DNA of 64,000 nt from a virus. A program made the translations under genes and the position numbers. Of the stretch, positions 46,288 to 63,478 are shown piece by piece; the first letter of the stretch is position 1; each line of letters starts with the position of its first letter. The stretch lies in the IMG/VR virus record IMGVR_UViG_3300011261_000048, positions 1-64,000 of that record. One strand, 5' to 3'. The notes beneath the pieces are model-generated. The model saw only the letters and a program-made list of their open reading frames with translations, ran no database searches and was not told the DNA's origin.

Positions 46288-46292
46288 ATATG

Positions 46293-46364: not shown

Positions 46365-46369
46365 ATATG

Positions 46370-49429: not shown

Positions 49430-49557
49430 TTAACTTCTATCCAATAGGAATATGTCCACTATAAATTAGCAACTGAAGGCACAAGTAATGTGGTAGCTAT
49501 TAAATGTAACGTGTCCGCATTGACAGATGCCAAGGATATGAACCTTGTAGAAGTTAA
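49430..49557 (+). ncRNA. Stem-closed structured RNA A1
   Basis: TTAACTTCTA/TAGAAGTTAA closing stem; TCCAAT; 3' CAAGG-ATATGAA-CCTTG hairpin abutting the stem. Confidence 0.6.
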
Positions 49558-49563
49558 ACTTAT

Positions 49564-49672
49564 TAAACTCTCATCCAATTGCAGGGATGGTCTATTCAAT
49601 GGTATTATACAGAACAGTATAATGTTAGACATCAGTTAAAAGTCAAGGGCTAAGCAACCTTGTGAGGGTTTA
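49564..49672 (+). ncRNA. Stem-closed structured RNA A2 (paralogue of A1)
   Basis: TAAACTCTCA/TGAGGGTTTA closing stem; TCCAAT; CAAGG-GCTAAGCAA-CCTTG. Confidence 0.6.
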
Positions 49673-49741
49673 TATTTTATTAACCATAGTAAAAAAATTA
49701 AAGATAGTTGGGCAGACAACCTGCACTATGGTTATATTTTA

Positions 49742-49847
49742 TTAAGAACCTTGCTCCAGTGAAGTAGACGTAAAACTCTACCTGATGTGTGATGCTTGAG
49801 ATGTAGACGGTGTACAACGTTGAAATCAAAGAGTAGCAGGTTCTTAA
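49742..49847 (+). ncRNA. Stem-closed structured RNA B1
   Basis: TTAAGAACCT/AGGTTCTTAA; contains TGAAGTAGACGT, also present at about 54798. Confidence 0.5.
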
Positions 49848-49920
49848 CTTACTAATCACACCACTCCCAGTTAATGATGGGTCCACAAATAGTATAGTTT
49901 GGTGGTGTGTTTATTTATAT

Positions 49921-49996
49921 CCCATCAAAGCCTCTTGTAGGTTAACCGATGCGTCAAAATAATACGACAGAGTAAGTTTAAATCTTACTGATGGAA
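49921..49996 (+). ncRNA. Degenerate tRNA-like RNA
   Basis: CCATCA/TGATGG acceptor-like stem; GTAAG-TTTAAAT-CTTAC T arm; no canonical anticodon arm. Confidence 0.55.
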
Positions 49997-50237
49997 CACG
50001 TGATTGCTAATAACAATCTAGTACAACTCTGTACGATGAGAAAAGGGAGTAATTACCTTATGAGTTGCCTAGTAGTATAGGTTGTATACTACAGGATATG
50101 AATCCTAGTTTGAGAGACTGAATCTTAGTTCTAACTACAATAAAATATACGTAAGAAACCATGCAATTGAGTAGGTGGAGTATAGTAGGACAGCAGTAAT
50201 GTTGAACGATTTTTTTAATTAACCTTAAAACAATAAT

Positions 50238-50597
50238 ATGAAAGATAATAAAATCATAGTAGTAGGTGCAGATAATACTGGCCGTACTACATTAACAAAG
50301 AAAGAACATAATGATATTATACTTATAGGTGCAGACAACACTATAGAAGTAAATGGTGTAATATATAAAAGGAGAGCAAGCAAAGCGAGTACACCAATGT
50401 CACGAAGAGTTTCAAGTATAATGATGATGGCACAAATGTTTGGAGAAACTACTTATAGTACAAAGAAACAAAGACAAAGACCTAATGTAATAATAGAAAA
50501 AGAGTTTGCTTTAATACAGCAAAAGAAATCTAACCTATCAAAAAGTGATAGAGATTGGGTAGAACATATGTTTCATATGCAGTACGATAAACTATGA
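50238..50597 (+). CDS. Hypothetical protein
   Basis: ORF track; C-terminal EFALIQQKKSNLSKSDRDWV. Confidence 0.65.
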   Translation: MKDNKIIVVGADNTGRTTLTKKEHNDIILIGADNTIEVNGVIYKRRASKASTPMSRRVSSIMMMAQMFGETTYSTKKQRQRPNVIIEKEFALIQQKKSNLSKSDRDWVEHMFHMQYDKL

Positions 50598-50977
50598 AAA
50601 ACGTAACAGATATACCGTACAAAGTATTATATGTAGAACAATGTAAATTAGCAGGTTATCCTATAGGTATGTCATTATATAAAGATATAATTAATGAGTA
50701 TCCAGAGTATTTTCCTATAGAAGCAGAACATAGTAGGAAATGGGCGTTAATACCTGAAGAAGTACATAAACAGTACAATAAAGAGTATTTAGAAGTATAT
50801 AATAACTATATGAGTAATTTACCACATGAAGGTAAAGGTATAATGTATTTTATACGAAATCCGAAAGACTATACTGAATGGAGTAAAGCATATAATGATG
50901 CAATAGAGAAATCAAAACCTCATTTAGATGCTATATATAAAAAACATTATAGTAAATATAATATTACACTAACATAA
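50594..50977 (+). CDS. Hypothetical protein
   Basis: ORF track; ATGA coupling. Confidence 0.65.
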   Translation: MKNVTDIPYKVLYVEQCKLAGYPIGMSLYKDIINEYPEYFPIEAEHSRKWALIPEEVHKQYNKEYLEVYNNYMSNLPHEGKGIMYFIRNPKDYTEWSKAYNDAIEKSKPHLDAIYKKHYSKYNITLT

Positions 50978-50992
50978 CTAAAACTAAATAAT

Positions 50993-51190
50993 ATGGAAAT
51001 ATGGGATAGTAAACAAGGGAAGTTTATTCCTAGACCTAAAGAAATAGATGACTTCTTAAAGGATATAGATGAAGTATGTAAGAAACATAATTTATCTATA
51101 AGCCATGAAGATGGTCATGGTGCTTTTGAAATAGAAAAATATGATAAGCAGAATATAATTTGGTTAAATAACGCACTTAAAAGATATTGA
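50993..51190 (+). CDS. Hypothetical protein (SISHEDGHGAF motif)
   Basis: ORF track. Confidence 0.65.
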   Translation: MEIWDSKQGKFIPRPKEIDDFLKDIDEVCKKHNLSISHEDGHGAFEIEKYDKQNIIWLNNALKRY

Positions 51191-51191
51191 C

Positions 51192-51563
51192 ATGAAAGAG
51201 CAACTAATAACAATTGAAACAGCTAAGTTAGCTAAAGAGAAAGGGTTTGATATACCACTACGTAGTCAATACTATGAAAAAGGAAAAATAACTCAAGATA
51301 TAACTGATGGTCAAAAATTAAGAGGAGGTAATTTTTATGCTGTAAACACTCAATCACTACTACAAAAATGGTTACGGGAAAAATATAGTTTTGAAATAAA
51401 TATCCATAGTTTTGAAACATGTGGTTGGTGGTACTATATTGGTTACATTGGCAACAATGCTAGTGAGATAGACTCTTCAGAACATGAATGGTGGTTTGCA
51501 GATTATGAAGAAGCCCTAGAAGAAGGATTACAAGAAGCGTTAAAATTAATTAGTAATGAGTAG
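51192..51563 (+). CDS. Bacteroidota-phage-type hypothetical protein (ETAKLAKEKGF...QKWLRE...YEEALEEGLQEAL)
   Basis: ORF track; paralogous to 55118..55498. Confidence 0.7.
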   Translation: MKEQLITIETAKLAKEKGFDIPLRSQYYEKGKITQDITDGQKLRGGNFYAVNTQSLLQKWLREKYSFEINIHSFETCGWWYYIGYIGNNASEIDSSEHEWWFADYEEALEEGLQEALKLISNE

Positions 51564-51804
51564 ACAGTTAGTAATGTACACAGGTGCAGGAGGTATTAAA
51601 ATGTATATTAAATCATTTTTAATTGAAATGGGTAGTGTGGATGTTACTGATAAAATGGTAAATACTATTTATAATCAAATTAAGTACTACCCTGAAACAG
51701 CCGCTTTCTTTGGTGTTACTGTATCTAGGACTTTTAAACTACCTAGAAAGAAGAAAAAGAAGTATAAACAATTAAAACTAAACGAAAATGAAAGAAGGAG
51801 ATAA
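51556..51804 (+). CDS. Hypothetical protein
   Basis: ORF track; KLPRKKKK. Confidence 0.55.
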   Translation: MSRQLVMYTGAGGIKMYIKSFLIEMGSVDVTDKMVNTIYNQIKYYPETAAFFGVTVSRTFKLPRKKKKKYKQLKLNENERRR

Positions 51805-52030
51805 AATAATATGGAATTCTGGATTTGGATATGAACTAGGTACATATATTTCAGATAAAGGAGTAATGTATGATACAGTACTAATTAATTTAGAAACAGG
51901 TGTAGCACAAGGGAAATTAAGTGTACCTATACATCAGATAATACCTAGAAGTAAGAAAGCATTAGAGATAATGCTACGTGAGTATCCTAGAGTACAAGTA
52001 AGTAAAACAATAACAACATTAACACATTAA
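51788..52030 (+). CDS. Hypothetical protein
   Basis: ORF track. Confidence 0.6.
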   Translation: MKEGDKIIWNSGFGYELGTYISDKGVMYDTVLINLETGVAQGKLSVPIHQIIPRSKKALEIMLREYPRVQVSKTITTLTH

Positions 52031-52052
52031 CAAACACTTAAAAATTAAAATT

Positions 52053-52286
52053 ATGAAATTATTACTATCAATACTATTAAGTATCTTATTGAGCAGCTGT
52101 CTTAAAAGTAATGAATATATGGATGCTGCAGAATTTTATAAAGTTTCTAAAGGGTGTATTGTTACAGGAGACTCTCCAGAAACTACTTTTATGCATCGAA
52201 GAATAACAGTAAAAACTACTACAGATGAATTTTTAACCTATATAGGTGAAGAATTATATTATGAAGTAGGAGATACTATAAAATAA
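52053..52286 (+). CDS. Putative lipoprotein
   Basis: Lipobox LLSSC. Confidence 0.65.
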   Translation: MKLLLSILLSILLSSCLKSNEYMDAAEFYKVSKGCIVTGDSPETTFMHRRITVKTTTDEFLTYIGEELYYEVGDTIK

Positions 52287-52291
52287 TTACT

Positions 52292-52528
52292 ATGGGGAAA
52301 TTAATGGATAGGTTAGAAAAACAACTAACTACAGAAAATAAGAAAGATGCAGAAGAATGTATAGAGATATATAATTGGATTAAATCTACTGATAAAGATG
52401 GAAGAGTTTGGTCTAGTAGATGGGAGCCTTTAACAAATGTTAGATTTATTGGAACATACCCTAGTACAAGAATTTATAACCTTAATATTACTGGTAAAGC
52501 ACTTCTAAAAGAACTAAGAACAGATTAA
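52292..52528 (+). CDS. Hypothetical protein
   Basis: ORF track. Confidence 0.6.
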   Translation: MGKLMDRLEKQLTTENKKDAEECIEIYNWIKSTDKDGRVWSSRWEPLTNVRFIGTYPSTRIYNLNITGKALLKELRTD

Positions 52529-52885
52529 TAATTTAAAAGTATAGGTTAAACCCTCATTAGGAGGGGGACAGCAAATTAATTGAAAGAAAATAATATAATA
52601 TTACCTATTGGGCCGATACTAAGGCTATAGTATGTTGAGATCATAACTACTGTTCTAAAAAGTGGTAAGTGTAGGAACTTATCAACTGACATGTGACTCT
52701 TAACTGAGAGCATGAGTGCAAGGCACACTAATATAATAAGCCTCTGAACAGGTACTTAAACAAGAAGTAATAATATAGTATTTTTGGTGTGTGTATTCCA
52801 CTACTAATTAAGGGATTTGTTTTACCGCCTGGAGCAATATGCTCAGTAGAAGGGTGTGAATAAGTGCTTATACTTTTAAGTTATT
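52527..52885 (+). ncRNA. Large (about 360 nt) stem-closed structured RNA
   Basis: About 20-bp closing helix AATAATTTAAAAGTATAGGT/GCTTATACTTTTAAGTTATT; internal hairpins; no ORF. Confidence 0.6.
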
Positions 52886-52921
52886 ATATTTAAATAATTA
52901 TAAACCCAAAAAATCAAAACA

Positions 52922-53311
52922 ATGAAAAATCTAATTTTAACAGTAATATGTATTCTAGTGAGTACAGTTACATTTGCAGGAGAACCAAAAAAAGATAAAG
53001 ACAATACCTTTGAAATATCAGGGTACTTCTTAAAGAATAGTAATATCTCTTATGAAGTATATGAAGTAACTAGTGACTCTTGGGAGTTGATAGAAAGTGG
53101 TAAAGGTATGAAACACTACAAGGTAGAGTTGGAGACTAACCATACATATGTAGTAATATTTAAGAAAGATGAGAAACAGAAGCTATTATTTGTTGATGTT
53201 CAAGTTCCTTCTTATATTGATATAGATGTAGACTTTAAATATTTACAGGATGCTACTTTAAAATACACTACTGATATGGAGGAGTATAAAGTAGCATTAA
53301 TAAAGAAATAG
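52922..53311 (+). CDS. Secreted/periplasmic protein
   Basis: Signal peptide MKNLILTVICILVSTVTFA. Confidence 0.65.
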   Translation: MKNLILTVICILVSTVTFAGEPKKDKDNTFEISGYFLKNSNISYEVYEVTSDSWELIESGKGMKHYKVELETNHTYVVIFKKDEKQKLLFVDVQVPSYIDIDVDFKYLQDATLKYTTDMEEYKVALIKK

Positions 53312-53486
53312 TAATATTATTTATGTTTTTACACGGAGGCCTTGTGTAATGTAATTAGCTTAAGCCTTAGGTACCATAAATTAGAATTAAATAGTGCCAC
53401 GCTTCCCATGGTTTAAAGTACAAGGATAATGAAGGAAATAATACGTTCCCTAAGCACTATTTATTTATTAACTAAAATTAAAAAAT

Positions 53487-53639
53487 ATGCCAGATATAAC
53501 AATGTGTAGGAATACTAAATGTATTCTAAAAGAGAAATGCTATAGATTTAAAGCAAAACCCAATCCACATAGACAATCTTATAGTAGTTTTACTCCTGAT
53601 AAAAGGGATAGATGTGATGGATTTGTAAAGATTGAATAA
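53487..53639 (+). CDS. Small Cys-rich protein (MPDITMC...C..KEKCYRF...QSY)
   Basis: Read manually; 50 aa, four Cys. Confidence 0.7.
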   Translation: MPDITMCRNTKCILKEKCYRFKAKPNPHRQSYSSFTPDKRDRCDGFVKIE

Positions 53640-53642
53640 ATT

Positions 53643-53856
53643 AAGACTCTCTGATTAAAGATAAACGTATCATAACACACCTCTCATTGTGAAGTACGCC
53701 AGTAGTAGTATAAACTGTATCAGCAGTTGTGTTTATTGTAGATGTAATAGGTAAAGGTGTAGATATAACACCCCACTTAAAGTGATGCAGGTTCCCATAT
53801 AAGTGAACTCGACTACAAGAAACTATTACCCCACTGAAATTTGGGCAGAGAGTTTT
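53643..53856 (+). ncRNA. Stem-closed structured RNA C1
   Basis: AAGACTCTCTG/CAGAGAGTTTT; 3' hairpin CCCA-CTGAAATT-TGGG abutting the stem. Confidence 0.55.
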
Positions 53857-53884
53857 ATTATTAAAAGAAAAGACTAAACATTGA

Positions 53885-54100
53885 ATCTTTGTGAATGAGA
53901 GAAGTCATAAAAATAGGAAAGATACCAAGACTTTTGATGGTAGATGCTTATTCACATAAAGATACTAGCAGTAATGTTAGATGTGTTGTCACCTTGAGAA
54001 AGTGATGCGAGCCATAAGTATATAGAAGCAAGTTAAAGGGATTCGACACTTAATCTTTGAACTTATGAGCTGGCTTTCCACAACACAAATGAGTTCTCAG
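53885..54100 (+). ncRNA. Multi-stem RNA with predicted pseudoknot
   Basis: ATCTTTGTGAATGAG/CTTATTCAC..AAAGAT; CTAGCA-GTAA-TGTTAG; TGTGTTGT/ACAACACA; loop TGAGAA complementary to TTCTCA. Confidence 0.55.
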
Positions 54101-54292
54101 CTAGTAGTTAAGGGGCTGGACACAGCATTTAGGCTGGTATAAACCTATCTAAAATGTGCATTAACAAGGTGATTAACTACGTGGACCCTACTCTTATTAG
54201 TCAAGTAGACTTGTTAAATATCTTAACATGTACCTGCGGGTATAGGATGAGCTAATAAGAAAGAGGGTACTAATGGGTATAATACCTGAAAT

Positions 54293-54362
54293 GGACAGAA
54301 GTAGAAATAGAGAATACGTCTACATTGTAGAAAGGTGTGAGGTTGGAATCCTCACCTGTCCA
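54293..54362 (+). ncRNA. tRNA-like RNA lacking an anticodon loop
   Basis: GGACAG/CTGTCC acceptor; GTA..TAC D arm; TCTAC-ATT-GTAGA; TGAGG-TTGGAAT-CCTCA T arm. Confidence 0.7.
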
Positions 54363-54388
54363 CAATTTATTAAATAAAATTAAAGAAA

Positions 54389-54763
54389 ATGAGTTATAAA
54401 TCAACAAGTACTAAAGGTTATATACCTTATGATTTTATTGAGCCAAATTTAGTAAGAGAACATAAAGAAGTAGATAGGTATATAAAATTATTGAATATAA
54501 CTCTACCACAAGAGGAATTTATTCTTAAATGTTTGTTATCTCAGAAATGGGGTAATAAAATAATAATAGGGGAAATAAAAGAAATATCAAGAGAAAAAAC
54601 TTTAGGTATGACCAAATATAAATTTTCATTAGTAGCTCCTTCAATGAATGTATCTTATTGTGATTCTAACCCTTTTGAAAAAGAAGGTTGGTCATTAGAT
54701 AATTTTGAAGATAGAGCTAGTTCTGTATATCATACTTTTATTAAAAGATTAATAAAATATTAA
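54389..54763 (+). CDS. Hypothetical protein
   Basis: ORF track. Confidence 0.6.
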   Translation: MSYKSTSTKGYIPYDFIEPNLVREHKEVDRYIKLLNITLPQEEFILKCLLSQKWGNKIIIGEIKEISREKTLGMTKYKFSLVAPSMNVSYCDSNPFEKEGWSLDNFEDRASSVYHTFIKRLIKY

Positions 54764-54768
54764 AATAT

Positions 54769-54946
54769 AGAGTTCAGAGTACTGAAGATATTCAGTGATG
54801 AAGTAGACGTTGAAAAATTACGTAGCAATCACAGCATGCTAAGATGCGTTGTTTATTGTAAGCTACTATTAACTCAGGGTATCCGAGACTATTGTGACTC
54901 AAGGGACTGAGATGTATTCCACTTAGAAATGGATGCTCTGAACTTT
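54769..54946 (+). ncRNA. Stem-closed structured RNA C2
   Basis: AGAGTTCAGAGTA/TGCTCTGAACTTT; 5' ACTGAA-GATA-TTCAGT; 3' TCCA-CTTAGAAA-TGGA. Confidence 0.6.
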
Positions 54947-54976
54947 TATTTATTAACTAAAACTAAAACTAAAATT

Positions 54977-55102
54977 ATGTATAAAGTTGTAACAACAGAT
55001 GATAAAAATACTGCATTGTTTTATGGTACTTATGATGAGTGTGAGGAGTGGGCAAGAAATAACCATCATACTTACGGCCCTATGAATATATTACCATATT
55101 AA
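54977..55102 (+). CDS. Small protein (41 aa, ...FYGTYDECEEW...)
   Basis: Read manually; A-rich leader. Confidence 0.55.
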   Translation: MYKVVTTDDKNTALFYGTYDECEEWARNNHHTYGPMNILPY

Positions 55103-55117
55103 CTAAAACTAACTAAG

Positions 55118-55498
55118 ATGAAAAAAGAATTTATACCATATGAAGAAGCATTAGTCTTAAAAGAATTAGGTTTTGATTATTGTTGTTTTTGTTCTTATCC
55201 TGAAAAAGATAAATTATCTGATTCTTTTGGAACTTTTTACAGAATAACACCTAGTAAAGTTGTGTTAGCACCTTTATACCAACAAGTATTTAGATGGTTT
55301 AGAGACATACATAATATGCCTCACTCAATAATTGTAGGCACAAATCCTACAACAAATATTGCTTATGCTAACAACATACCAGCAGTTATTGAGGGCAAAA
55401 CAGATAGTGTATATACTACCTACGAAGAAGCAGAACTCGCTTGTCTTAGAAAATTAATTGAAATTGTAAAACAAGAACAAGATGAAAAAAGAATGTAA
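55118..55498 (+). CDS. Hypothetical protein (KEFIPYEEAL.LKELGF...APLYQQVFRWFR...TYEEAELACL)
   Basis: ORF track; paralogous to 51192..51563. Confidence 0.7.
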   Translation: MKKEFIPYEEALVLKELGFDYCCFCSYPEKDKLSDSFGTFYRITPSKVVLAPLYQQVFRWFRDIHNMPHSIIVGTNPTTNIAYANNIPAVIEGKTDSVYTTYEEAELACLRKLIEIVKQEQDEKRM

Positions 55499-56195
55499 AA
55501 CACACATGTTACCTACTAAAGGTGAAAGTCAGATACACGAAATTGATAAAAACTATTTATATTTTTCAATATCTCAAGCAGTGCCAGCAGATAGAAGATA
55601 CCACCTATACATAACAGATGACTCTAAGATTGAGGAAGGTGATTGGGTTTATAACCATGCCACCAACAAAATTTTTCAACCAAAGGGTCTAGCTGTTAAT
55701 TTAGTAGGGCTTAGAAAAATAATAGCCTCTACCGATAAGTCATTAACAGTAAAAGAAACTATCAAAGTTGGAGACATAGTTAACAGCAGTAAAGAAGACT
55801 TTAATATTCAGCAAGTTCACACGCAAGAGAGTGCTAACCTTTACAATAAGTCAGACCACTACTTTAAGTGTTTACCACAAATCCCACAAGACTTCATCAA
55901 ACAATACTGTGAGAATCCAGTTGAGAGTGTTTTGGTGGAGTATGAATTTAATGGAGGTGCTTGTAGTTTGGAAGAAGGGTGTACAGAACCCACAGAAGAA
56001 TGTACTTGTGAACCCATTATATATTATAAGCCAACACTAAAAGACAACTGTATAATCATATCTCCTATTGAAGAGAAGAAGAAACACCCAACACCATTTA
56101 GTTTGATTAGAAAGTTCACGCAAGACCATCCCCTTGAAAGAGGTTTGCAAATTCTTGATAGTGATATTGAAAAATGGATTAAAGAAAACTTATGA
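55482..56195 (+). CDS. Hypothetical protein (HLYIT..IEEGDW...KIIASTD..LPQIP)
   Basis: ORF track. Confidence 0.7.
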   Translation: MKKECKTHMLPTKGESQIHEIDKNYLYFSISQAVPADRRYHLYITDDSKIEEGDWVYNHATNKIFQPKGLAVNLVGLRKIIASTDKSLTVKETIKVGDIVNSSKEDFNIQQVHTQESANLYNKSDHYFKCLPQIPQDFIKQYCENPVESVLVEYEFNGGACSLEEGCTEPTEECTCEPIIYYKPTLKDNCIIISPIEEKKKHPTPFSLIRKFTQDHPLERGLQILDSDIEKWIKENL

Positions 56196-56302
56196 TTATG
56201 GCTTCGAGGGTTTAAAGAATGAATTACTAAACCAGTTAACTTTTTAAATAACGATTGCAATATGTTTAGTTACGGATTAATAATAACTTAAAATTTTATA
56301 AA

Positions 56303-56575: not shown

Positions 56576-56645
56576 TTGTTGCTAACGGACAAGAATATGA
56601 AGCGTTTTAATGCTTTGCAAATAATTAATAAATAACTTTACAAAA

Positions 56646-57611: not shown

Positions 57612-57620
57612 AAAGTAAAC

Positions 57621-57983
57621 ATGAGTTTAACAGAAGGAGTAACAGAAGGAGTATCGTATTTTGTAAAGCAAACTATTGCCTTGATGAAAGGAGATACAGA
57701 TGAAGCATTAGCTTTAAAGAACAGAAAAAGAGCAATTGCTGGTATCAAAGCAGAATTAACTCAATTAGAGTTATTGAAAATGGATGCAGAGCAAGAAGTA
57801 GAAGATGCTGAAGCATTAGTGAAAGCTGCAAAGTTTCCAGTAGAATTAATTACTGACACTAAGAGCTACATCTTTAATCTTAAAGAATATTTAGGATTAC
57901 TAGAGACTAGACAGGATGCTTTAGATGATGTAAATCATTCTATAGAATTTCAAACTGGTTTACTAGCTGAAATCTCTAAGTAA
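57621..57983 (+). CDS. Coiled-coil protein
   Basis: ORF track; followed by terminator 57990-58017. Confidence 0.65.
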   Translation: MSLTEGVTEGVSYFVKQTIALMKGDTDEALALKNRKRAIAGIKAELTQLELLKMDAEQEVEDAEALVKAAKFPVELITDTKSYIFNLKEYLGLLETRQDALDDVNHSIEFQTGLLAEISK

Positions 57984-57989
57984 AATTAA

Positions 57990-58017
57990 AACCCTCTCTT
58001 GAAATATAGGGAGGGTT
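57990..58017 (+). terminator. Terminator-like hairpin
   Basis: AACCCTCTCT...AGGGAGGGTT. Confidence 0.6.
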
Positions 58018-58041
58018 ATTATTAACCTAAAAAATCACAAT

Positions 58042-58251
58042 ATGATCACATTACCAATAATAATTACTTTAGTAGTTATACTATGGAATTATATAACCTA
58101 CAGAAAATGTAGAAAAGTTAAAGCAAAATTTAACTTATTTGAAGCATGTGTATATGAGAAATGGAAAACCACTAGGTATTTTATAAACACTTCTTACATT
58201 TGCTTACTTATAACAGCAATAGGACTATTAATAATATATTATTGTCCTTAG
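58042..58251 (+). CDS. Small membrane protein
   Basis: Two hydrophobic segments. Confidence 0.55.
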   Translation: MITLPIIITLVVILWNYITYRKCRKVKAKFNLFEACVYEKWKTTRYFINTSYICLLITAIGLLIIYYCP

Positions 58252-58274
58252 TATTAATCTAAAAAATTAAAGAT

Positions 58275-58547
58275 ATGTTTGAATCAGAATGTAAAATATT
58301 ATACCAAGATTATGATAAAAAGCATCTTAAGAGGTGTTTGAAAGTCCTAAAGAAAAGGCAACAGATGGATCCAGATGATGAATTAGCATATCATATAAAC
58401 TATCTTGAAGATAGAATTTACTTTTTAGCAATTACTAACAGTAGACTAGAAAGGCTTAGAAATTGGCTTGTAGAGTCAGCTGATTTATTCATAGTATTTT
58501 TTGGAATCTTAATGGCTATGCTATTATTATATATACTGATTAAATAG
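58275..58547 (+). CDS. Hypothetical protein with C-terminal TM
   Basis: ORF track. Confidence 0.6.
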   Translation: MFESECKILYQDYDKKHLKRCLKVLKKRQQMDPDDELAYHINYLEDRIYFLAITNSRLERLRNWLVESADLFIVFFGILMAMLLLYILIK

Positions 58548-58548
58548 T

Positions 58549-58854
58549 ATGAAAGTAACAGCTAAGCAAGAAAAGAAGAAAGATTTAATATGGCATATGT
58601 GGAGTGTAAAGAAAATGACTTTTAGGGCTATTGCTAAAGAAGTAAAATTACCTTTAACCCATGTATACAATACTGTTAATGCTAAAAAAGTACAACATAA
58701 CTATAAGGAGAGTTATGCTATACCTATTGGCCTGGGTAATGCTAAAAATAAAGTAAACCTAAAAGTAAATGATGAAATGGAGTATGGTACTCCTGTTTTT
58801 AAATGTACTTGGGATGATTTATCTAAAGCAGAACAACAGTTAGCAACAAATTAA
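58549..58854 (+). CDS. Putative HTH DNA-binding protein
   Basis: KMTFRAIAKEVKLPLTHVYNTV helix-turn-helix pattern. Confidence 0.6.
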   Translation: MKVTAKQEKKKDLIWHMWSVKKMTFRAIAKEVKLPLTHVYNTVNAKKVQHNYKESYAIPIGLGNAKNKVNLKVNDEMEYGTPVFKCTWDDLSKAEQQLATN

Positions 58855-58966
58855 AGAAGTATACCCGACAAGGAATACGTAGTCTATAGCCCTTTGAGGT
58901 TCACTGTAAATATAGTCTAGCCCTGATGAGTGTGAAGGGGCTTATTTAACAACTTAAAAATTAACA

Positions 58967-59281
58967 ATGAGTAAGAGAAAACCAAGACATCATTATGCTA
59001 CCGCTAAGTACCCTACTAAAGTAATAATATTACCTAGGTTTGATGCTGAAGAAGATAATTATATGCAATTTCAAAAAGAAACTGTATTAGTTACTCCTAA
59101 CAAAGTGATAGATAAGGATACCGAAACAGAAAGATGGGAATACCCACATGAAGCATTAGCTAGAATAGAGAAACTAGCAGAGGCAAGAGTGGCCCAATTG
59201 AATATAGAGTATAAAACTAGTAATGGTTTTTATATTCTTAAGAAAGGAATACGTACTTCACGTAAAGTGAAGAATTATTAA
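58967..59281 (+). CDS. Hypothetical protein
   Basis: ORF track. Confidence 0.6.
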   Translation: MSKRKPRHHYATAKYPTKVIILPRFDAEEDNYMQFQKETVLVTPNKVIDKDTETERWEYPHEALARIEKLAEARVAQLNIEYKTSNGFYILKKGIRTSRKVKNY

Positions 59282-59295
59282 CTAAACTAAATACA

Positions 59296-59730
59296 ATGGA
59301 AAAATCTACAAGAAAAGATATTATACTGAATATAATATTCTGGGCAATAGTAGTACTAGCTTTCCTATTTATGATAGGAGGCAGTTTACATGCACAGACT
59401 AAGAGTGAAGTATATAAGGAGATAATTAAACAGGGTATAAAACATCCTGATATAGTTATGGCCCAAGCTAGATTAGAAACAGGTAACTTTACTTCTGGTA
59501 TTTGTAAGCGTAATAACAATTTGTTTGGTATGAAACTACCTAAACAAAGAAGAACTACAGCAATAGGAGAAAGTAAAGGGCATGCTAGGTATAATAACTG
59601 GAAGAAATCAGTAGAAGATTATAAAATTTGGCAAGATACCTTTTATAAAGAAGGAGATTATTATATTTTCTTAGAATCTCATGGTTATGCTACAAGTAAT
59701 ACCTATATTAGCAAACTAAAACAATTTTAA
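59296..59730 (+). CDS. GH73 glucosaminidase / FlgJ-like peptidoglycan hydrolase with N-terminal TM
   Basis: AQARLETG, NNLFGMK, GYAT. Confidence 0.85.
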   Translation: MEKSTRKDIILNIIFWAIVVLAFLFMIGGSLHAQTKSEVYKEIIKQGIKHPDIVMAQARLETGNFTSGICKRNNNLFGMKLPKQRRTTAIGESKGHARYNNWKKSVEDYKIWQDTFYKEGDYYIFLESHGYATSNTYISKLKQF

Positions 59731-59732
59731 TA

Positions 59733-59906
59733 ATGGGAGATGAAAGTATAATGCCTTGGGGTATTCATCAAGGTAAACAAATGCAGGAAGTACCTGCTAC
59801 CTATCTTATATTTCTATTAACAGAAAATAAGGCTAATGGAGAAGTACTAGAGTACATTCAAGAAAATGAAGAGACTTTAAGACTTGAGATAAAACAAGGA
59901 CTATGA
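59733..59906 (+). CDS. DUF3820-like small protein (MPWG.H.GK.M.EVPA.YL)
   Basis: Read manually; ATGA-coupled to the next gene. Confidence 0.7.
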   Translation: MGDESIMPWGIHQGKQMQEVPATYLIFLLTENKANGEVLEYIQENEETLRLEIKQGL

Positions 59907-60220
59907 GTGAAATAGGGGACAGAAGTAATGAAGGTAAATTAAAATGGTCTTTAGTATCTTGGAAAGCATTAGCTCCTATGGTAAAAGTACTAATGTTTGG
60001 AGCAACTAAATACTCTGCATGGAATTGGACTAAAGGACTTAAGTATACAGAAATCTGTGAAAGCCTTTTACGGCACACACATGCCTTTTTAGAAGGAGAA
60101 GATGATGATCCAGAAAGTAAATTAGAACATGTAGGGCATATACTATGTAATGCAATGTTCTTATCATATATGTTTCTTTTTAAGAAAGATATGGATGATA
60201 GAGAAAAATTAAATAATTAA
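59903..60220 (+). CDS. dATP/dGTP diphosphohydrolase domain protein (DUF5664)
   Basis: GKLKWSL, FGATKY..WNW.KG, SLLRH...GE..DPES.L.H..H..CN..FL. Confidence 0.85.
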   Translation: MSEIGDRSNEGKLKWSLVSWKALAPMVKVLMFGATKYSAWNWTKGLKYTEICESLLRHTHAFLEGEDDDPESKLEHVGHILCNAMFLSYMFLFKKDMDDREKLNN

Positions 60221-60244
60221 AATAATATAAAAATATAGACACAT

Positions 60245-60604
60245 ATGGGAAATTTTAGCAGGAGATTAGATTTTGTAGTAGGATTAATTACTGGGAGAAC
60301 TAAGAAAGTAAAAGATAGTGAAGGTAGAGTAAGAGAAGAATTTGTTCCTAATCAATGGAATAAGCATCCTCTAATCTCTGTATTAGAGAAAGGTAGTCCA
60401 GATAAGACTAGGATGGAAATCTTAGAAAAGGAAGGATTAGTGCTACCAGCCTTAAATATCAATAGAGATGTTTTTGGTAAAACACCAAGAGAGAAGAGAT
60501 ATCTTAAGAAACTTAAAGCTGAACATAAAAAGGCTTTAATTAATGCAGGATTTAATCCTAAGAAGAGACTAAATGTGTCTGAACCTATGACCTTACATGC
60601 GTAA
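60245..60604 (+). CDS. Hypothetical basic protein
   Basis: ORF track. Confidence 0.6.
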   Translation: MGNFSRRLDFVVGLITGRTKKVKDSEGRVREEFVPNQWNKHPLISVLEKGSPDKTRMEILEKEGLVLPALNINRDVFGKTPREKRYLKKLKAEHKKALINAGFNPKKRLNVSEPMTLHA

Positions 60605-60632
60605 GGTTATTATAGTTTAGATAAACAATACT

Positions 60633-60663
60633 GAGGGCTACTACTATAGAAGTAGTCCTCTTT
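60633..60663 (+). terminator. Terminator-like hairpin immediately upstream of tmRNA
   Basis: GAGGGCTACT-ACTATAGA-AGTAGTCCTC-TTT. Confidence 0.6.
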
Positions 60664-60667
60664 ATAT

Positions 60668-61052
60668 GGGCCTGTTCTGGAATTGCTTTATGTAGGAAAA
60701 TTATAATATCAGCAGTCAGTGGTGACTTTAAATACTGTAGGTGAATTTCAATAAACGGAAATACAATCAAAAATGAAGTTGGCTCTAGAGCTGACGTAGA
60801 AGCTCCAATGATTAAGTTCTTTGGAGGTGACGTAACAGAAGGTTCTGTTATTGCTCCAGCAATGGAGATGGCTATTGCAGCCTAAACCCAAAATAGTTTC
60901 TTAGTTCTATAAAAACTAAGTGGTGGAGGTTAACATCTAATGTTGACCCTAGACTAATTCTGAAGTTAGTCTTTAAATAAGTATCAGAGTAAGCTGTATA
61001 AATATTATATTTAGAATATGTGAATACAAGGGTTCGACTCCCTTCAGGTCCA
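60668..61052 (+). ncRNA. ssrA: tmRNA
   Basis: Acceptor GGGCCTG/CAGGTCC with G3.U alanyl identity pair; T arm AAGGG-TTCGACT-CCCTT; tag frame 60757-60885 ending MAIAA*. Confidence 0.92.
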
Positions 61053-61056
61053 CTAC

Positions 61057-61156
61057 AATAGTTAAAAGCGAAAATCTTTGGATAAGTAGAGTAGGTAAGA
61101 GTTAGATCTGAGATTTACCTTCTCCCTTTGAATAACGTGAGTAACTTTTAACTATT
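61057..61156 (+). ncRNA. Stem-closed rod-like RNA directly after tmRNA
   Basis: Perfect 12-bp AATAGTTAAAAG/CTTTTAACTATT; inner GAG.AGGTAA/TTACCT.CTC. Confidence 0.5.
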
Positions 61157-61179
61157 TTTATTAACTTTAAAAACAAGCA

Positions 61180-61923
61180 ATGAAATATAAATTAATTAAA
61201 GAATATCCAGGAAGTCCTAAAAAGGGGTTTATTTCTAATAATGAAGGAGGAGTAAGTCATTATCATAAAGACCATCCTGACTTCTGGGAGGAAGTAGTTG
61301 AAAAAGATTATGAGATACTGTCAATTATATCCACTAAGTACAATAGTATATATGGTAGAGGAGAAATACAAAATATTCATAGAAAAAATTATACACATAG
61401 TAATAATTTGGCAGATGATTCTCCTTGGAATATCCATTCAGTCAAAAGATTACATGATGGTGAAGTATTTAATGTTGGTGATAGTATCAATGTAATGCAT
61501 CATCCTCATCACCCTAAAGGAGTTAAGATAAGATCTTTGACAGTAGATAAGGATTATATTTGTGTAAGTACCACTGATGATATAGATAGTGCTTTTTCAG
61601 GTGGAGCAGGGTTTAACTTCTTAATAGCGGAACATAATATCAAACCATTATTCACAACAGAAGATGGTGTTGATATATTTAAGAATGACACTTATTATGT
61701 TGTTTGGAAAGATTTTACTTTTGCCTTAACAAACCAAGAACCTGGGAGTGAGGCAGTAAAAAGAGTTTTAACTAGATACTCAACACAAGAAAAAGCTGAA
61801 GAATATATTCTAATGAATAAACCTTGTTTATCTATTAAGGAAGTACAAGAAGCATACTATCTTAGTGCTAGAGAACATACTCATATAGATAAATTAATAA
61901 CAATAGCAAAAAGTAAATTATGA
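61180..61923 (+). CDS. Hypothetical protein (YKLIKEYPGSP...DYEILS...IHSVKRL.DGEVF.VGD...LFTTEDGVDI)
   Basis: ORF track. Confidence 0.7.
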   Translation: MKYKLIKEYPGSPKKGFISNNEGGVSHYHKDHPDFWEEVVEKDYEILSIISTKYNSIYGRGEIQNIHRKNYTHSNNLADDSPWNIHSVKRLHDGEVFNVGDSINVMHHPHHPKGVKIRSLTVDKDYICVSTTDDIDSAFSGGAGFNFLIAEHNIKPLFTTEDGVDIFKNDTYYVVWKDFTFALTNQEPGSEAVKRVLTRYSTQEKAEEYILMNKPCLSIKEVQEAYYLSAREHTHIDKLITIAKSKL

Positions 61924-62255
61924 AAAAATACATAGCAATAATGTTAGTAGTAATACTAACAAGTATTAGTTGTACAAAGATGACAACTAATAACAGAATA
62001 GAAGGAACATGGACTGCCAATGATATTGGTGTTGAACATGTAGAAACTTATTCTGATGGGTATATAATGAATGAAAATGGAGATACTACTTATATTTATG
62101 AAGTAATGTCTAAAGGTATAATTCATTATAATCAAGTGTTTCCTAATGATTCATTAGGTGCTTTAGAAGAATACACAATTATTTCTATAAGTAAAAAGGA
62201 AATGATTATAGAATATGGAGTTTTAGGTCAGAAAACCTGGAGTAAGAGAGATTAG
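61920..62255 (+). CDS. Lipoprotein with lipocalin-like domain
   Basis: Lipobox TSISC, then IEGTW. Confidence 0.65.
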   Translation: MKKYIAIMLVVILTSISCTKMTTNNRIEGTWTANDIGVEHVETYSDGYIMNENGDTTYIYEVMSKGIIHYNQVFPNDSLGALEEYTIISISKKEMIIEYGVLGQKTWSKRD

Positions 62256-62302
62256 TGGGTTATGGTTTTCTACACTTAAACAAGAAATCCGTGGGTTAAT
62301 AC

Positions 62303-62331
62303 GGTCCAGGTGTGATTACCTGGACCTTTTT
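62303..62331 (+). terminator. Intrinsic terminator
   Basis: GGTCCAGGT-GTGATT-ACCTGGACC-TTTTT. Confidence 0.8.
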
Positions 62332-62355
62332 ACATTAAAAATTAAAACAACTATA

Positions 62356-62577
62356 ATGAATAAAGAATTTACCGTAGAATATGCATGTGACTTTGAAGGA
62401 GATTACACTGCAAGTATAGTTAACTGTACTGAAACAAAAGAAAAAACTTTCAAGTGTTGGGAAACCGCACTAAATTTTATAAATAAATGTACAATGGTAC
62501 ATAACTTAGACCAATTATTAAATGTAGTACCTATAGAGCTCGTCCCTGATGCTGTATATGAACCTACATTTTATTAG
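62356..62577 (+). CDS. Hypothetical protein
   Basis: ORF track. Confidence 0.55.
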   Translation: MNKEFTVEYACDFEGDYTASIVNCTETKEKTFKCWETALNFINKCTMVHNLDQLLNVVPIELVPDAVYEPTFY

Positions 62578-62606
62578 GTAATTATTAATTAATTAAAAAT
62601 AGACAT

Positions 62607-62900
62607 ATGTTAGACATAGGTACTAAATTTGAAGGCGCAGAACAATATGAAATGTGTGAATTACAAGTAGTTGATAATTCTCAATTTGAAGAGTCAGATA
62701 TATATGAATGTATTATAACAAGTTCTCCAGAAGAAGATGAGATAGGAGACACTTGCTTTTTAGATTCGTATGAAGTAGGAGATTTACTACGTCAAAGTTC
62801 TACAGGGACAATTGGAGTAGTAGTAATGAACTTTTCTTCTGCCCCATTATTTCAAACTTCAGAAATGAACACAGCCATTATCTTAGGCTTAGTAAAGTAA
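62607..62900 (+). CDS. Hypothetical acidic protein
   Basis: ORF track. Confidence 0.55.
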   Translation: MLDIGTKFEGAEQYEMCELQVVDNSQFEESDIYECIITSSPEEDEIGDTCFLDSYEVGDLLRQSSTGTIGVVVMNFSSAPLFQTSEMNTAIILGLVK

Positions 62901-62974
62901 GATAAATTAAATTACAATTTCAAGTAAACTACACGAAGTAGTTTGCAATTATTAATGTCACAAAAAATATAAAC

Positions 62975-63265
62975 ATGGCAGCAACAAAAAAAGATGTATT
63001 GAGCTTAGCATTAGCTAACGTAAAGAAAACTGATATTGAAAGAGAATCAGAAGGAATCAGAAGAGCAGTAGCAGATAATGCTCATTCTTGGGGAAATGAA
63101 TTACATAATGCAAAGAAAGCAGTTCAAACTGCAGGAGACAAGATTGCAGCATTAGCCTCTAATGTTAACGCTACAGCAGCACAATGTCTACAAGCAAGTA
63201 GAGATTTGGCATTGGCGGAAGCTAATGTTAAAGCTATTGAAGAATTAATGGCAGTAAGATTTTAA
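62975..63265 (+). CDS. Ala-rich coiled-coil protein
   Basis: ORF track; followed by a terminator. Confidence 0.65.
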   Translation: MAATKKDVLSLALANVKKTDIERESEGIRRAVADNAHSWGNELHNAKKAVQTAGDKIAALASNVNATAAQCLQASRDLALAEANVKAIEELMAVRF

Positions 63266-63284
63266 TTAATCTTATGATTATTAT

Positions 63285-63313
63285 GCCCTCTACTTAATTG
63301 TAGGGGGCTTTTT
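63285..63313 (+). terminator. Intrinsic terminator
   Basis: GCCCTCTAC-TTAATT-GTAGGGGGC-TTTTT. Confidence 0.8.
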
Positions 63314-63478
63314 ATTAAATACTAGATTTGAGTTCGAATCTTGATAAGACTACGATAATCGCAGTTTTTCTTATCCTCTCTTCAACGATTAGAAATATTG
63401 AAAGACGGGATAAAGCAGCTATGCTTTGAAATAGCATTTAGTCTTATGGTATAAGGTATTACGAGTATTTAATAAAAA
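63309..63478 (+). ncRNA. Circularly permuted tRNA-like RNA (YrlA / Y-RNA-like topology)
   Basis: Order is T arm (TTGAG-TTCGAAT-CTTGA), acceptor 3' strand TAAGACT-A, insert, acceptor 5' strand AGTCTTA, D arm; closed by a 15-bp helix in the anticodon-stem position. Confidence 0.7.

Follow-up and report, generated by a model that had tools for sequence, protein, structure and literature searches.

Stem-closed structured RNAs in the early arm of a crAss-like phage genome: a probable island of non-coding RNA genes

The window analysed here is a stretch of 64 kb that makes up the first part of a 93.5-kb crAss-like phage genome. An earlier note on this DNA described the longer intergenic gaps of the early arm as a bank of stem-closed, often tRNA-mimicking non-coding RNA modules. 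This raises the question of whether the helices bracketing the gaps mark RNA genes at all and, if so, of what kind. In our assessment the early arm probably is a true island of phage non-coding RNA genes that have a common frame (Table 1).

Closing helices in the early-arm gaps

All 11 closing helices described earlier were found at their intervals, with RNAfold terminal stems of 6-21 bp, and two extra units of the same type (M3 and M5) were recognized in an 810-nt gap. The claim that more than 2 kb is spent on such elements proved correct, as the 11 units comprise 1586 nt, the two extra ones 107 nt, RNA B approximately 410 nt and the tmRNA 388 nt. Long open reading frames are absent from the gaps in the standard code and also when TGA, TAG or TAA is recoded. 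Most units begin a few nucleotides after the upstream stop codon and finish 20-40 nt ahead of the next gene, and six of them form an array (49430-49996) with no intervening gene. All copies lie on the transcribed strand and are oriented like the neighbouring genes. The units are arranged head to tail with AU-rich spacers of 6-15 nt, and no common promoter motif was found upstream of them, which fits co-transcription.

Table 1. Structured RNA units and associated features in the early arm (positions in the window).
Feature	Position	Strand	Description
M1	49430-49557	+	11-bp closing helix, abutting hairpin CAAGG..CCTTG; diverged family C paralogue
M2	49564-49672	+	Family C member, ~110 nt; AAACTCTCATCCAATTGCAGG ... 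CAAGG-loop-CCTTG-TGAGRGTTT
M3	49681-49734	+	10-bp closing helix; small hairpin or possible pseudoknot GTTG-GGCAGA-CAAC-CTGC
M4	49742-49847	+	10-bp closing helix; weak support
M5	49857-49909	+	9-bp G+C-rich closing helix, then TTTATTTAT
M6	49921-49996	+	6-bp closing helix, abutting T-arm-like hairpin GTAAG-TTTAAAT-CTTAC
M8	52526-52886	+	~360-nt ORF-free RNA candidate, 21-bp closing helix with G.U pairs
M9	53388-53463	+	10-bp closing helix, then TTTATTAAC
RNA family A member	53642-53857	+	Closing helix, abutting 3' hairpin, U tract
RNA family B	53866-54274	+	Between units; six invariant blocks, GNRA hairpin, pseudoknot TGAGAA/TTCTCA
M12	54292-54362	+	tRNA-like minihelix: 6-7 bp acceptor-like stem, abutting 6-bp hairpin, 7-nt loop TTGGAAT
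RNA family D member	54769-54946	+	Paralogue of family A
tmRNA	60668-61055	+	Rfam RF00023, 53.1 bits (threshold 47)
M14	61057-61156	+	12-bp A+T-rich closing helix directly after tmRNA, then TTTTTATTAAC
Terminator-like hairpin, classical	63285-63308	+	GCCCTCTAC..GTAGGGGGC; T run is the 5' strand of M15; read from sequence
M15	63309-63478	+	Perfect 15-bp closing helix around four-way junction, 9-bp inner helix

Exact 10-mer inverted repeats at such distances are common, with 86 in the 93-kb genome. When long-range helices were defined by a span of 45-400 nt and a stacking energy of <= -15 kcal/mol, 14 mutually disjoint ones were counted in 10 early-arm gaps (3.6 kb), compared with 6.2+-1.5 in dinucleotide shuffles of the gaps (maximum 10, n=100) and 5.9+-2.0 in native coding sequence (maximum 12, n=60). 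Taken collectively, the helices thus stand out from dinucleotide-shuffled controls. The per-unit MFE z-scores range from -1.2 (M9) to -3.9, with a mean of -2.25 against -2.41 for 37 coding intervals selected because they happen to carry an inverted repeat of at least 10 nt (p=0.35). Since these chance intervals score alike, the z-scores provide no evidence for the units, and a lone unit without further support may be due to chance. Approximately six of the 14 helices are expected by chance, and about half of the units could have arisen in this way.

In 7 of the 13 units a hairpin sits directly against the 3' strand of the closing helix, versus 0.88+-0.93 with shuffled interiors (maximum 4, n=500); the earlier note ascribed such hairpins to several units and likened them to a T arm. 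T-rich tracts (at least 5 T in 8 nt) follow 6/13 units at a background of 6.4% (binomial p=7.6e-5). Comparative data back five units, namely the A and D members, M2, M1 and M3. Homologue searches returned nothing for M4, M5, M6, M9 and M14, leaving these five without comparative support, and nothing for M8. The M8 helix reaches -25.6 kcal/mol, a value matched in 1/120 shuffles. M4 also has no abutting hairpin or T tract, and M9 is probably a 3'-end or terminator structure.

RNA families conserved among phages

The units are supported as non-coding RNAs as opposed to noise. Four of them fall into three RNA families (A, C and D) kept across phages whose proteins are merely 33-40% identical, and covariation in the closing helix is strong. 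Family A is defined by a covarying 7-9 bp terminal helix, a GAAGATAAAC 5' motif, the core ACTGTAYYAGCAGTTGTGTTT, an abutting 3' hairpin and a U tract. All of these are found in the member located in the window, which has a GAAGATAAAC-like motif and the invariant core AAACTGTATCAGCAGTTGTGTTTATTG and is recovered by a profile built without the window (E=1.8e-24). The family is restricted to phages, its core being found in 104 viral contigs versus 4/185,579 species genomes. The closing helix was identified in 77/83 instances, nearly all of them followed by a TTTTTA-type tract. Its positions are 96.8% paired, with compensatory changes at 7/9 pairs, and the covariation score of 0.34 compares with <=0.108 for slid partners and was reached by 0/500 shuffles. 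At one hairpin pair, C-G and U.G occur in 21 sequences each; as the latter would be a C.A mismatch on the opposite strand, the structure fits an RNA of the + strand. A tRNA or tmRNA lies within 2 kb in ~40% of the loci of families A and B, always on the same strand. In the commonest neighbouring protein, phrog_15656, no recognizable fold was found.

Family D, the paralogue of A, is characterized by the core ATGCTAAGATGNTGTTRTTTATTG, the hairpin TCCA-CTTAGAAA-TGGA abutting the closing helix and a T tract. The member in the window possesses these features, with the core ATGCTAAGATG.TGTTGTTTATTGTAAG, and a profile built without the window finds it at E=9.2e-16. Homologues were detected in L198, L174 and L030, the motif is present in 9 contigs, and the closing helix differs from those of L174 and L030 by compensatory changes. 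Family C is defined by a length of ~110 nt, 5' AAACTCTCATCCAATTGCAGG and the hairpin CAAGG-loop-CCTTG directly before the 3' closing strand TGRGRGT, which follows the hairpin immediately in 60/65 instances; its 19-mer motif occurs in 72 viral contigs. M2 displays these features, is recovered by an independent profile (E=5.5e-13) and has two G.U pairs in its closing helix on the + strand. M1 shares with M2 the 5' TCCAAT and the 3' hairpin, and their closing helices have four compensatory differences; the family C profile built without the window rows misses M1. The interior of M3 shares 97.6% identity over 42 nt with a stretch inserted at the apex of the last RNA B hairpin in L061.

RNA B lies between the units. 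An exact 23-mer of this family was found in 75 viral contigs of 13-306 kb, and in L007 an HNH endonuclease ORF is inserted in it. A homologue is present in Cellulophaga phage phi14:2 (2903-3373), at the g004-g005 junction (2905-3589). In that phage a tmRNA, scored by Rfam at 46 bits (E 2.6e-16), lies in the g005-g006 junction (3911-4601) and a family A homologue (1284-1500) in the g002-g003 junction. Phage phi14:2, also a member of Crassvirales, has early long non-coding RNAs in the corresponding arm (Drobysheva et al., bioRxiv 10.1101/2020.03.07.982082). Already at the earliest time point, rightward transcription of the g004-g005 and g005-g006 junctions is above that of most genes, and the transcripts are very abundant, stable and still abundant late in infection (10.1101/2020.03.07.982082). 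Just these two junctions, of B and of the tmRNA, were singled out, and not the family A junction (10.1101/2020.03.07.982082). RNA families, structures and boundaries are not defined in that study, A, C and D are not mentioned, and tmRNA appears in its main text only within the description of how genes were predicted. The transcription data belong to phi14:2; the units of the present phage are candidate RNAs predicted from sequence.

The same conservation bears on the proposal that the inverted repeats act as DNA, i.e., as terminal-repeat miniature mobile elements, recombination sites or origins, and that RNA folding is incidental. An inverted repeat bounds every unit, and motifs do change their context, as seen for the M3 interior in the RNA B of L061 and for the HNH endonuclease ORF in the B of L007. 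The compensatory changes, however, keep pairing and not sequence, and the helices contain G.U pairs, for which DNA or the opposite strand would have A.C mismatches. In addition, the terminal repeats vary among units with no single transposase site evident, and all copies share the strand and orientation of their transcribed neighbours. We disfavour this explanation and regard it as very improbable.

Relation to tRNA, tmRNA and other structured RNAs

The description of the modules as often tRNA-mimicking can be retained for three or four units only. T-arm-like hairpins, with a 5-6 bp stem and a 7-nt UUNRANY loop, are confined to M6, M12 and M15. When such a hairpin is also required to abut the 3' strand of the terminal helix, as in a tRNA-like minihelix, M6 and M12 remain, the TTCGAAT arm of M15 being placed on the 5' side. 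In families A, C and D, the loops of the abutting hairpins are 5-9 nt long and do not follow the T-loop pattern. No unit was called as tRNA by Rfam RF00005 or by default ARAGORN, nor did any match at E<=5, and the only tRNA-scoring interval was 46217-46440 (- strand). Relaxed ARAGORN settings produced solely contrived intron-containing calls reusing the T-like hairpins of M6 and M12. M15 has a canonical T arm (TTGAG-TTCGAAT-CTTGA), its segment 63330-63350 matches the 3' end of a tRNA-Pro encoded by the phage itself, and it is possibly a circularly permuted tRNA-like RNA. M12 follows RNA B, and tRNA-like elements or tmRNA adjoin B in relatives.

These observations can be set against the earlier proposal that the units are tRNA mimics excised by tRNA-processing enzymes (RNase P or RNase Z) or by RNase III, forming with tmRNA and tRNAs a translation-protection kit of putative decoys or antitoxin mimics. 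The closing helix with its abutting hairpin does have the topology of an acceptor/T-arm stack, the three T-arm-like hairpins and the tRNA-Pro 3'-end copy of M15 point in this direction, and tmRNA and tRNAs lie alongside the units. Furthermore, 106 T-arm-plus-acceptor elements missed by ARAGORN are present in related phages, and many of these have a tRNA-Leu-like frame in which the anticodon region is aberrant or expanded. Nevertheless, no unit reaches a tRNA score, T-loop consensus, D-arm and anticodon-like loops are all missing from A, C and D, the families with the best support, and neither a discriminator nor CCA follows the helices. We consider this proposal as a whole improbable. The decoys would be directed against anticodon nucleases, type III toxin-antitoxin systems or Cas13, but no defence system or nuclease target was identified.

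Among known RNAs, tmRNA resembles the units in that its ends pair, its T arm abuts the 3' strand and a large structured insert separates the two, and a true tmRNA is present in the same arm. Its acceptor stem has a G3:U70 pair, as read from the sequence. In contrast, the units have neither this pair nor a tag reading frame, none qualifies as tmRNA by RF00023, and the T-loop consensus is missing except in M15 and, loosely, M6 and M12. The tRNA cluster of phage T4 encodes the stable small RNAs C and D (species 1 and 2), which are co-transcribed with the tRNAs and matured from a shared precursor. By description the units would resemble these as phage-encoded stable small RNAs near tRNA genes, but the T4 RNAs are part of a tRNA operon, and most of the present units are between protein-coding genes. 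Bacterial Y RNAs (YrlA), also reported from phages, are stable, protein-bound RNAs with a tRNA-like module and a long closing stem formed by their ends. The units share the topology of the long closing stem, yet match no Y RNA model at E<=5.

The Rfam scan, proposed earlier as a check, did not place the units: no Rfam 15 family, including 6S, Y RNA, GOLLD, ROOL, riboswitches and ribozymes, was matched at gathering score. At E<=5-10 only weak, chance-level matches appeared, such as SpF41, the sole match of M12 (25.5 bits versus a threshold of 52, over 54290-54395). The large ornate RNAs GOLLD and ROOL and the structured RNA candidates from IMG/VR (PMC10690425) are likewise phage-borne and often near tRNAs; the units differ from GOLLD and ROOL in matching neither Rfam family. 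The IMG/VR set comprises 8495 anonymous candidates found by covariation in metagenomic viral contigs (PMC10690425). Families A-D, which match no Rfam family, may be among them.

Possible roles of the units

The common frame consists of paired 5' and 3' ends, often with a small hairpin stacked on the 3' strand of the helix, followed by a U-rich tract or by a 6-15-nt AU-rich spacer. We infer that such a frame would let each unit fold independently inside a long early transcript. It could also fix the 3' end, where transcription would terminate at the U tract or the RNA would be cleaved within the spacer, and guard both ends from exonucleases, so that the RNAs accumulate and persist. The interiors may then be regarded as payloads: in A, C and D, and also in B, they include invariant stretches of 20-26 nt kept across ~10 to 100 phage contigs. 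These payloads may work in trans, with a conserved protein of the host or the phage as the most likely binding partner.

A more far-reaching version, which we consider unlikely, is that A, C and D (perhaps also M8, M12 and M15) descend from tRNA or tmRNA. They would have kept only the acceptor/T-arm-like frame, acquired new invariant payloads and borrowed the tRNA end-processing and stability pathways of the host, thereby supplying abundant early decoys or sponges. If this were true, they would represent a phage-specific class of framed RNAs delivered from the first minutes of infection and directed against a conserved Bacteroidota factor, which could be an RNase, a nuclease used in defence or a factor of translation.

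The units could instead be purely cis-acting, as terminators of the early polymerase, mRNA 3'-end stabilizers or processing sites that separate early transcription units, with no role in trans. Their placement between stop codon and next gene, the T-rich tracts (including those following nearly all family A instances) and the lack of a conserved interior in several units agree with this, as do the unrelated stem-plus-T-run elements found after the tmRNA in relatives. At the place of M14 these relatives have a different such element, and M14 is likely the 3'-end structure of the tmRNA unit. Early genes of phage T7 are separated by RNase III sites, structured gap elements that define and stabilize RNA 3' ends and are each formed by one irregular hairpin of about two helical turns. 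The helices of the present units differ in being long-range, mostly 9-12 bp in length, and in surrounding conserved multi-branched interiors. RNase III sites would require approximately 20 bp or more of near-continuous dsRNA, a length reached by the 21-bp closing helix of M8 alone, the others having 6-15 bp. A terminator also leaves unexplained the invariant 20-26-nt interiors in 72-104 contigs with proteins ~35% identical, the gene-free array of six units and the late-abundant RNAs of phi14:2. An exclusively cis-acting role for all units is thus a tentative alternative, rather unlikely in our view. Some units without conserved payloads, on the other hand, are probably no more than terminators, 3'-end structures or chance products; for M14 and M9, for example, a terminator or 3'-end role may be the full account.

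When the gaps were inspected for intrinsic terminators, the hairpin preceding M15 fitted the pattern of a local G+C-rich stem with a U run. The T-tract-adjacent helix of the units is long-range (strands 45-360 nt apart) and mostly A+T-rich, which would be unusual for a terminator.

Group I introns were also considered and rejected for the units and RNA B, from which the P4/P7 core (Q, R and S elements) is absent. Beyond the window, group I core elements are plain at G000 65561-65740, 74545-74848 and 78676-79211. A DNA polymerase-like reading frame begins directly after the first of these, whereas the second and third match a gap that splits the DNA polymerase of phi14:2.

Closing helices in the early arm

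The most abundant human gut phages belong to the Crassvirales, and their early programme is poorly understood. The source of the window is a crAss-like phage; the ORF at 33530-35023 (- strand) matches the Crassvirus major capsid family (E=1.7e-132). The IMG/VR virus record comprises 93,469 bases and is rated 98% complete, and bases 1-64000 of it, with a G+C of ~0.32, are considered here. Strand skew changes sign near 47 kb. The late arm is on the - strand and has very long ORFs as well as a GroEL/Cpn60-family chaperonin gene (42021-43547, -), and an arm on the + strand with many small genes begins at ~47.7 kb. Structured RNAs, not proteins, take up approximately 2.5 kb of the 14 kb of this early arm. 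Only three tRNAs and a tmRNA were above threshold in an Rfam scan of the window (see table). The third tRNA, a tRNA-Pro with anticodon TGG (46370-46440, -), was found by Rfam and not by ARAGORN at default settings.

The early arm had been described in an earlier note as a bank of non-coding RNA units, and eleven intervals were listed as bracketed by a closing helix; all 11 indeed fold with that terminal helix. Two further units (49681-49734 and 49857-49909) were found in the 810-nt gap, so that there are 13 in total, and six of them tile 49430-49996 with 6-11 nt between them. Long ORFs were not found in the gaps under the standard code or any stop-codon recoding.

Because the genome is A+T-rich and contains 86 exact 10-bp inverted repeats, one such repeat alone means little. 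When all long-range gap helices were counted at cut-offs of -10 and -12 kcal/mol, their number did not exceed that in shuffles. Disjoint helices of -15 kcal/mol or below, however, number 14, compared with 6.2±1.5 in shuffled gaps (maximum 10, n=100) and 5.9±2.0 in native coding sequence. The excess is thus confined to helices that are both strong and mutually disjoint and is not seen in raw counts of moderately strong ones. The 21-bp helix of 52526-52886 was equalled in one of 120 shuffles. A hairpin that adjoins the closing helix on its 3' strand, previously seen in several units, occurs in 7/13 (0.88±0.93 expected), and a T-rich tract directly follows six of the 13 (background 6.4%, p=7.6e-5).

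The minimum free energy z-scores of single units (-1.2 to -3.9) were dropped as evidence, since 37 coding intervals selected because they happen to contain an inverted repeat score alike (mean z -2.25 for the units vs. -2.41, p=0.35); the z-scores are therefore a selection effect. About half of the units, taken singly, could be chance. The description as a bank of non-coding RNAs holds for at least five units plus RNA B and the tmRNA.

Some minor sequence features were also recorded. The octamer TTTATTAA is present in 27 copies in the window (16.6±3.9 expected), and seven of the eight + strand copies in the early arm are within 1-4 nt of a helix 3' end. Short motifs common to units (GAAGTAGA, TATTCCACT, AGGTTAAAC) are too short to be weighed alone. 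The last 240 nt of the 810-nt gap (49997-50237) have no strong closing helix, and within them, at ~50191, there is CAGCA-GTAA-TGTTG, a near-copy of the GNRA hairpin of RNA B.

RNA features of the window and tRNA-Leu-like frames in loci (L numbers) of related phages
Feature	Position	Strand	Remarks
Three tRNAs	46217-46440	-	Rfam
Family C member	49564-49672	+	5' motif, CAAGG-loop-CCTTG hairpin, closing helix
T-arm feature	unit 49921-49996	+	GTAAG-TTTAAAT-CTTAC
Family A member	53642-53857	+	core, closing helix, 3' hairpin, T tract
RNA family B	53866-54274	+	between units, absent from the earlier list
T-arm feature	unit 54292-54362	+	GTGAGG-TTGGAAT-CCTCAC, 6-7 bp stem
Family D member	54770-54945	+	core, 3' hairpin, T tract
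tmRNA	60668-61055	+	Rfam 53.1 bits
Canonical T arm	unit 63309-63478	+	TTGAG-TTCGAAT-CTTGA
TTTATTAA near helix 3' ends	49676, 49738, 53464, 54366, 54949, 61157, 63311	+	
tRNA-Leu-like frame (examples)	L033 4162-4282, L036 4838-5005, L080 839-965, L103 2085-2181, others		

RNA families and the RNA island

No close relative of the phage was found in the collections searched. Distant relatives were represented by 29 loci encoding a homologue of the ORF at 61180-61923, with amino acid identities of 27-50% (mostly 33-40%). Despite this protein divergence, the non-coding gaps share blastn patches of 80-97% identity with them. Four RNA families, A to D, were defined; none of these has a matching family in Rfam, and nhmmer profiles revealed no further paralogues of them in the whole genome. 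At least four RNAs of the window thus belong to families without an Rfam match. Viral contigs with a given family number approximately 10 to 100 and vary widely in size; bacterial genomes hardly ever have one. These families may overlap with the anonymous candidates of an IMG/VR survey (PMC10690425).

The invariant core of family A, ACTGTAYYAGCAGTTGTGTTT, was detected in 104 viral contigs vs. four of 185,579 species genomes, two of the four being Flavobacteriaceae. In 77 of 83 distinct copies a helix of at least 7 bp joins the stretch before the GAAGATAAAC motif to a stretch 150-270 nt downstream, and in nearly all of these 77 a TTTTTA-type tract then comes. In an alignment of 45 sequences the 9-bp closing helix is 96.8% paired and has compensatory changes at seven pairs, its covariation score being 0.34, compared with 0.108 or less for slid partners, and reached by none of 500 shuffles. 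The abutting 3' hairpin covaries too (CCCA/TGGG, CCUA/UAGG, UCCA/UGGA), and one of its pairs is split evenly between C-G and U.G among the sequences, a pattern compatible with RNA of the + strand only. The member in the window was recovered by a profile built without it (E=1.8e-24). A tag-peptide-like reading of the core was dropped, since the frame is not kept across members.

Family D is a paralogue of family A. The two have in common the 5' motif, the core end UGUUKUUUAUUGUA, the hairpin UAUUCCACUWAGAAWUGGA and the T tract, while the specific core of D differs from that of A. The D motif is present in nine contigs, and the window member matches an independent profile with E=9.2e-16; in the homologous loci L198, L174 and L030, D is located directly after A.

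The 5' motif of family C was found in 72 contigs. Some 110 nt downstream of it, 60 of 65 copies have the 3' closing strand TGRGRGT immediately behind the CAAGG-loop-CCTTG hairpin, and the window member matches an independent profile (E=5.5e-13). Next to it, unit 49430-49557 is built in the same way and shares the short motifs; its closing helix differs by four compensatory changes, and the unit is too diverged to be detected by the family C profile.

Among the non-coding stretches RNA B (~300-500 nt) is the most conserved. It has six invariant blocks and a covarying GNRA hairpin; in addition, a helix GTGTTGT/ACAACAC encloses a hairpin whose UGAGAA loop can pair with a downstream UUCUCA, forming a pseudoknot. 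An exact 23-mer of RNA B was located in 75 viral contigs, which measure 13 to 306 kb. RNA B has neither an Rfam match nor a group I intron core. As a rule an A, C or D unit lies before it and a tRNA-like element or tmRNA after it; with these flanks the region forms an RNA island and not a collection of independent gaps. The commonest protein neighbour of A, B and C RNAs, phrog_15656 (55482-56195, 237 aa), accompanies them in 41 of 252 loci, without exception on the same strand, and is encoded by g004 in Cellulophaga phage ϕ14:2. This protein has no Pfam family, and its structural model (pLDDT 75) has no Foldseek match in PDB. In one related phage (L007, ~6985-7530) an HNH-type homing-endonuclease-like ORF resides inside RNA B just after the GNRA hairpin, and other RNA B copies have smaller inserts at the same point.

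The interior of unit 49681-49734 shares 97.6% identity with the tip of the final family B hairpin in another related phage (L061), and therefore a small motif is used in two contexts. No homologues were found for 49742-49847, 49857-49909, 49921-49996, 52526-52886, 53388-53463, 54292-54362 and 61057-61156. The Rfam scan proposed in the earlier note returned no match in the units, either at gathering thresholds or by E-value, and the sole match in Megablast and blastn searches of the phage collection was ϕ14:2 for B. A pattern derived from a weak resemblance between unit 54292-54362 and SpF41 gave a 50-nt match in each of 20 contigs, and these were taken as SpF41 itself and not as relatives of the unit. 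As a query for related loci the protein at 50238-50597 retrieved no relatives; for that at 52922-53311 the metagenome scan was empty, and the only relative found has 65% identity.

Resemblance to tRNA and tmRNA

With its paired ends and the hairpin stacked against the 3' strand, the frame of the units, which is significantly enriched, resembles the acceptor/T-arm stack and tmRNA in topology. The units had been described as often mimicking tRNAs. Only three of them have true T-arm features (see table), no unit scores as a tRNA, and the window members of families A, C and D have no T-loop, D-arm or anticodon features. Unit 63309-63478 also contains a 9-bp inner helix and a segment that corresponds to the 3' end of tRNA-Pro from the same phage; with the T arm, these form a four-way junction compatible with a circularly permuted tRNA-like fold. 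The relaxed, intron and mitochondrial modes of ARAGORN gave only contrived calls on the units.

In 270 related loci ARAGORN called 366 tRNAs and 26 tmRNAs, and in 106 further elements, which it did not call, a canonical T arm adjoins a 7-bp helix resembling an acceptor stem. Twelve of the latter were folded, and many showed a tRNA-Leu-like acceptor stem, D arm and T arm with an expanded or aberrant anticodon region. A recurring tRNA-Leu-like frame, uncalled by ARAGORN and often adjoining A or B, has the acceptor AGTCAGG/CCTGACT, normal D and T arms and an aberrant region of 30-100 nt replacing the anticodon arm. An apparent circularly permuted (two-piece type) tmRNA gene is present at L061 3490-3640, where the T arm and 3' acceptor strand (..GAGGGTTCGATTCCCTC CATCTCCA) are ~60 nt upstream of the 5' end (GGGGATGACTGG..). 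Oddities derived from tRNA, such as the uncalled T-arm elements and the permuted tmRNA, are thus common in this phage group. The proposals of the earlier note that the units mimic tRNAs, are cut out by tRNA-processing enzymes and serve as decoys are unproven; topology and neighbourhood are their only support.

Expression and possible mode of formation

The units are arranged head to tail with AU-rich spacers of 6-15 nt. No promoter motif common to the regions upstream of A, B and C was found, including the Bacteroidota motif TAnnTTTG, and early virion-polymerase transcripts of ϕ14:2 have no common upstream motif either (Drobysheva et al., bioRxiv 10.1101/2020.03.07.982082). As the spacers are too short for a conventional promoter and a common upstream motif is lacking, we infer that the units are co-transcribed from early promoters. 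The terminal helix would then isolate the folding of each unit, and the U-rich tract or spacer would give the 3' end by termination or cleavage. Paired ends could guard against exonucleases, from which persistence of the RNAs in ϕ14:2 would follow. How the virion RNA polymerase of these phages ends its transcripts may also be visible in the shared frame (paired ends, abutting hairpin, U-rich spacer); a terminator signal for this enzyme is not given in the ϕ14:2 paper (10.1101/2020.03.07.982082).

The constancy of the interiors suggests a conserved partner. A bound protein is the better guess here, ahead of antisense pairing, if on thin evidence, since a search of two Flavobacteriaceae genomes for complements and copies of the family A core yielded nothing but family A itself. 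Units 53388-53463 and 61057-61156, with no conserved interior and located between genes or after the tmRNA, may simply be structures of the 3' end; in relatives the site after the tmRNA is occupied by stem-plus-T-run elements of unrelated sequence.

In the published strand-specific RNA-seq data of ϕ14:2 (locus L014; eight libraries, with and without rifampicin) the B and tmRNA regions were among the most abundant transcripts, read rightward from the earliest time point and still abundant later (10.1101/2020.03.07.982082). By RefSeq coordinates the B homologue (2903-3373) falls in the highly transcribed g004-g005 junction (2905-3589), and the second "long non-coding RNA" junction, g005-g006 (3911-4601), holds a tmRNA (4031-4502; Rfam 46 bits, one bit under threshold, E=2.6e-16). 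In the main text of that paper tmRNA is mentioned only as part of the gene-prediction method, and the g002-g003 junction is not singled out (10.1101/2020.03.07.982082). The family A homologue (1284-1500) is in this junction, where two short ORFs were withdrawn in 2020; positions 1279-1983 of ϕ14:2 contain a tRNA-like element besides family A. Only the B and tmRNA regions have so far been noticed experimentally, as unexplained abundant RNAs. Since ϕ14:2 can be grown in the laboratory on Cellulophaga baltica, has A, B and tmRNA and is covered by RNA-seq data, the function of these RNAs is directly testable.

Beyond the window, the phage record (G000) contains three group I introns that lack an ORF and have clear Q, R and S elements (65561-65740, 74545-74848 and 78676-79211). 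The first is directly followed by a DNA polymerase-like reading frame; the other two are paralogues, and their homologue splits the DNA polymerase of ϕ14:2 (gp029/gp031).
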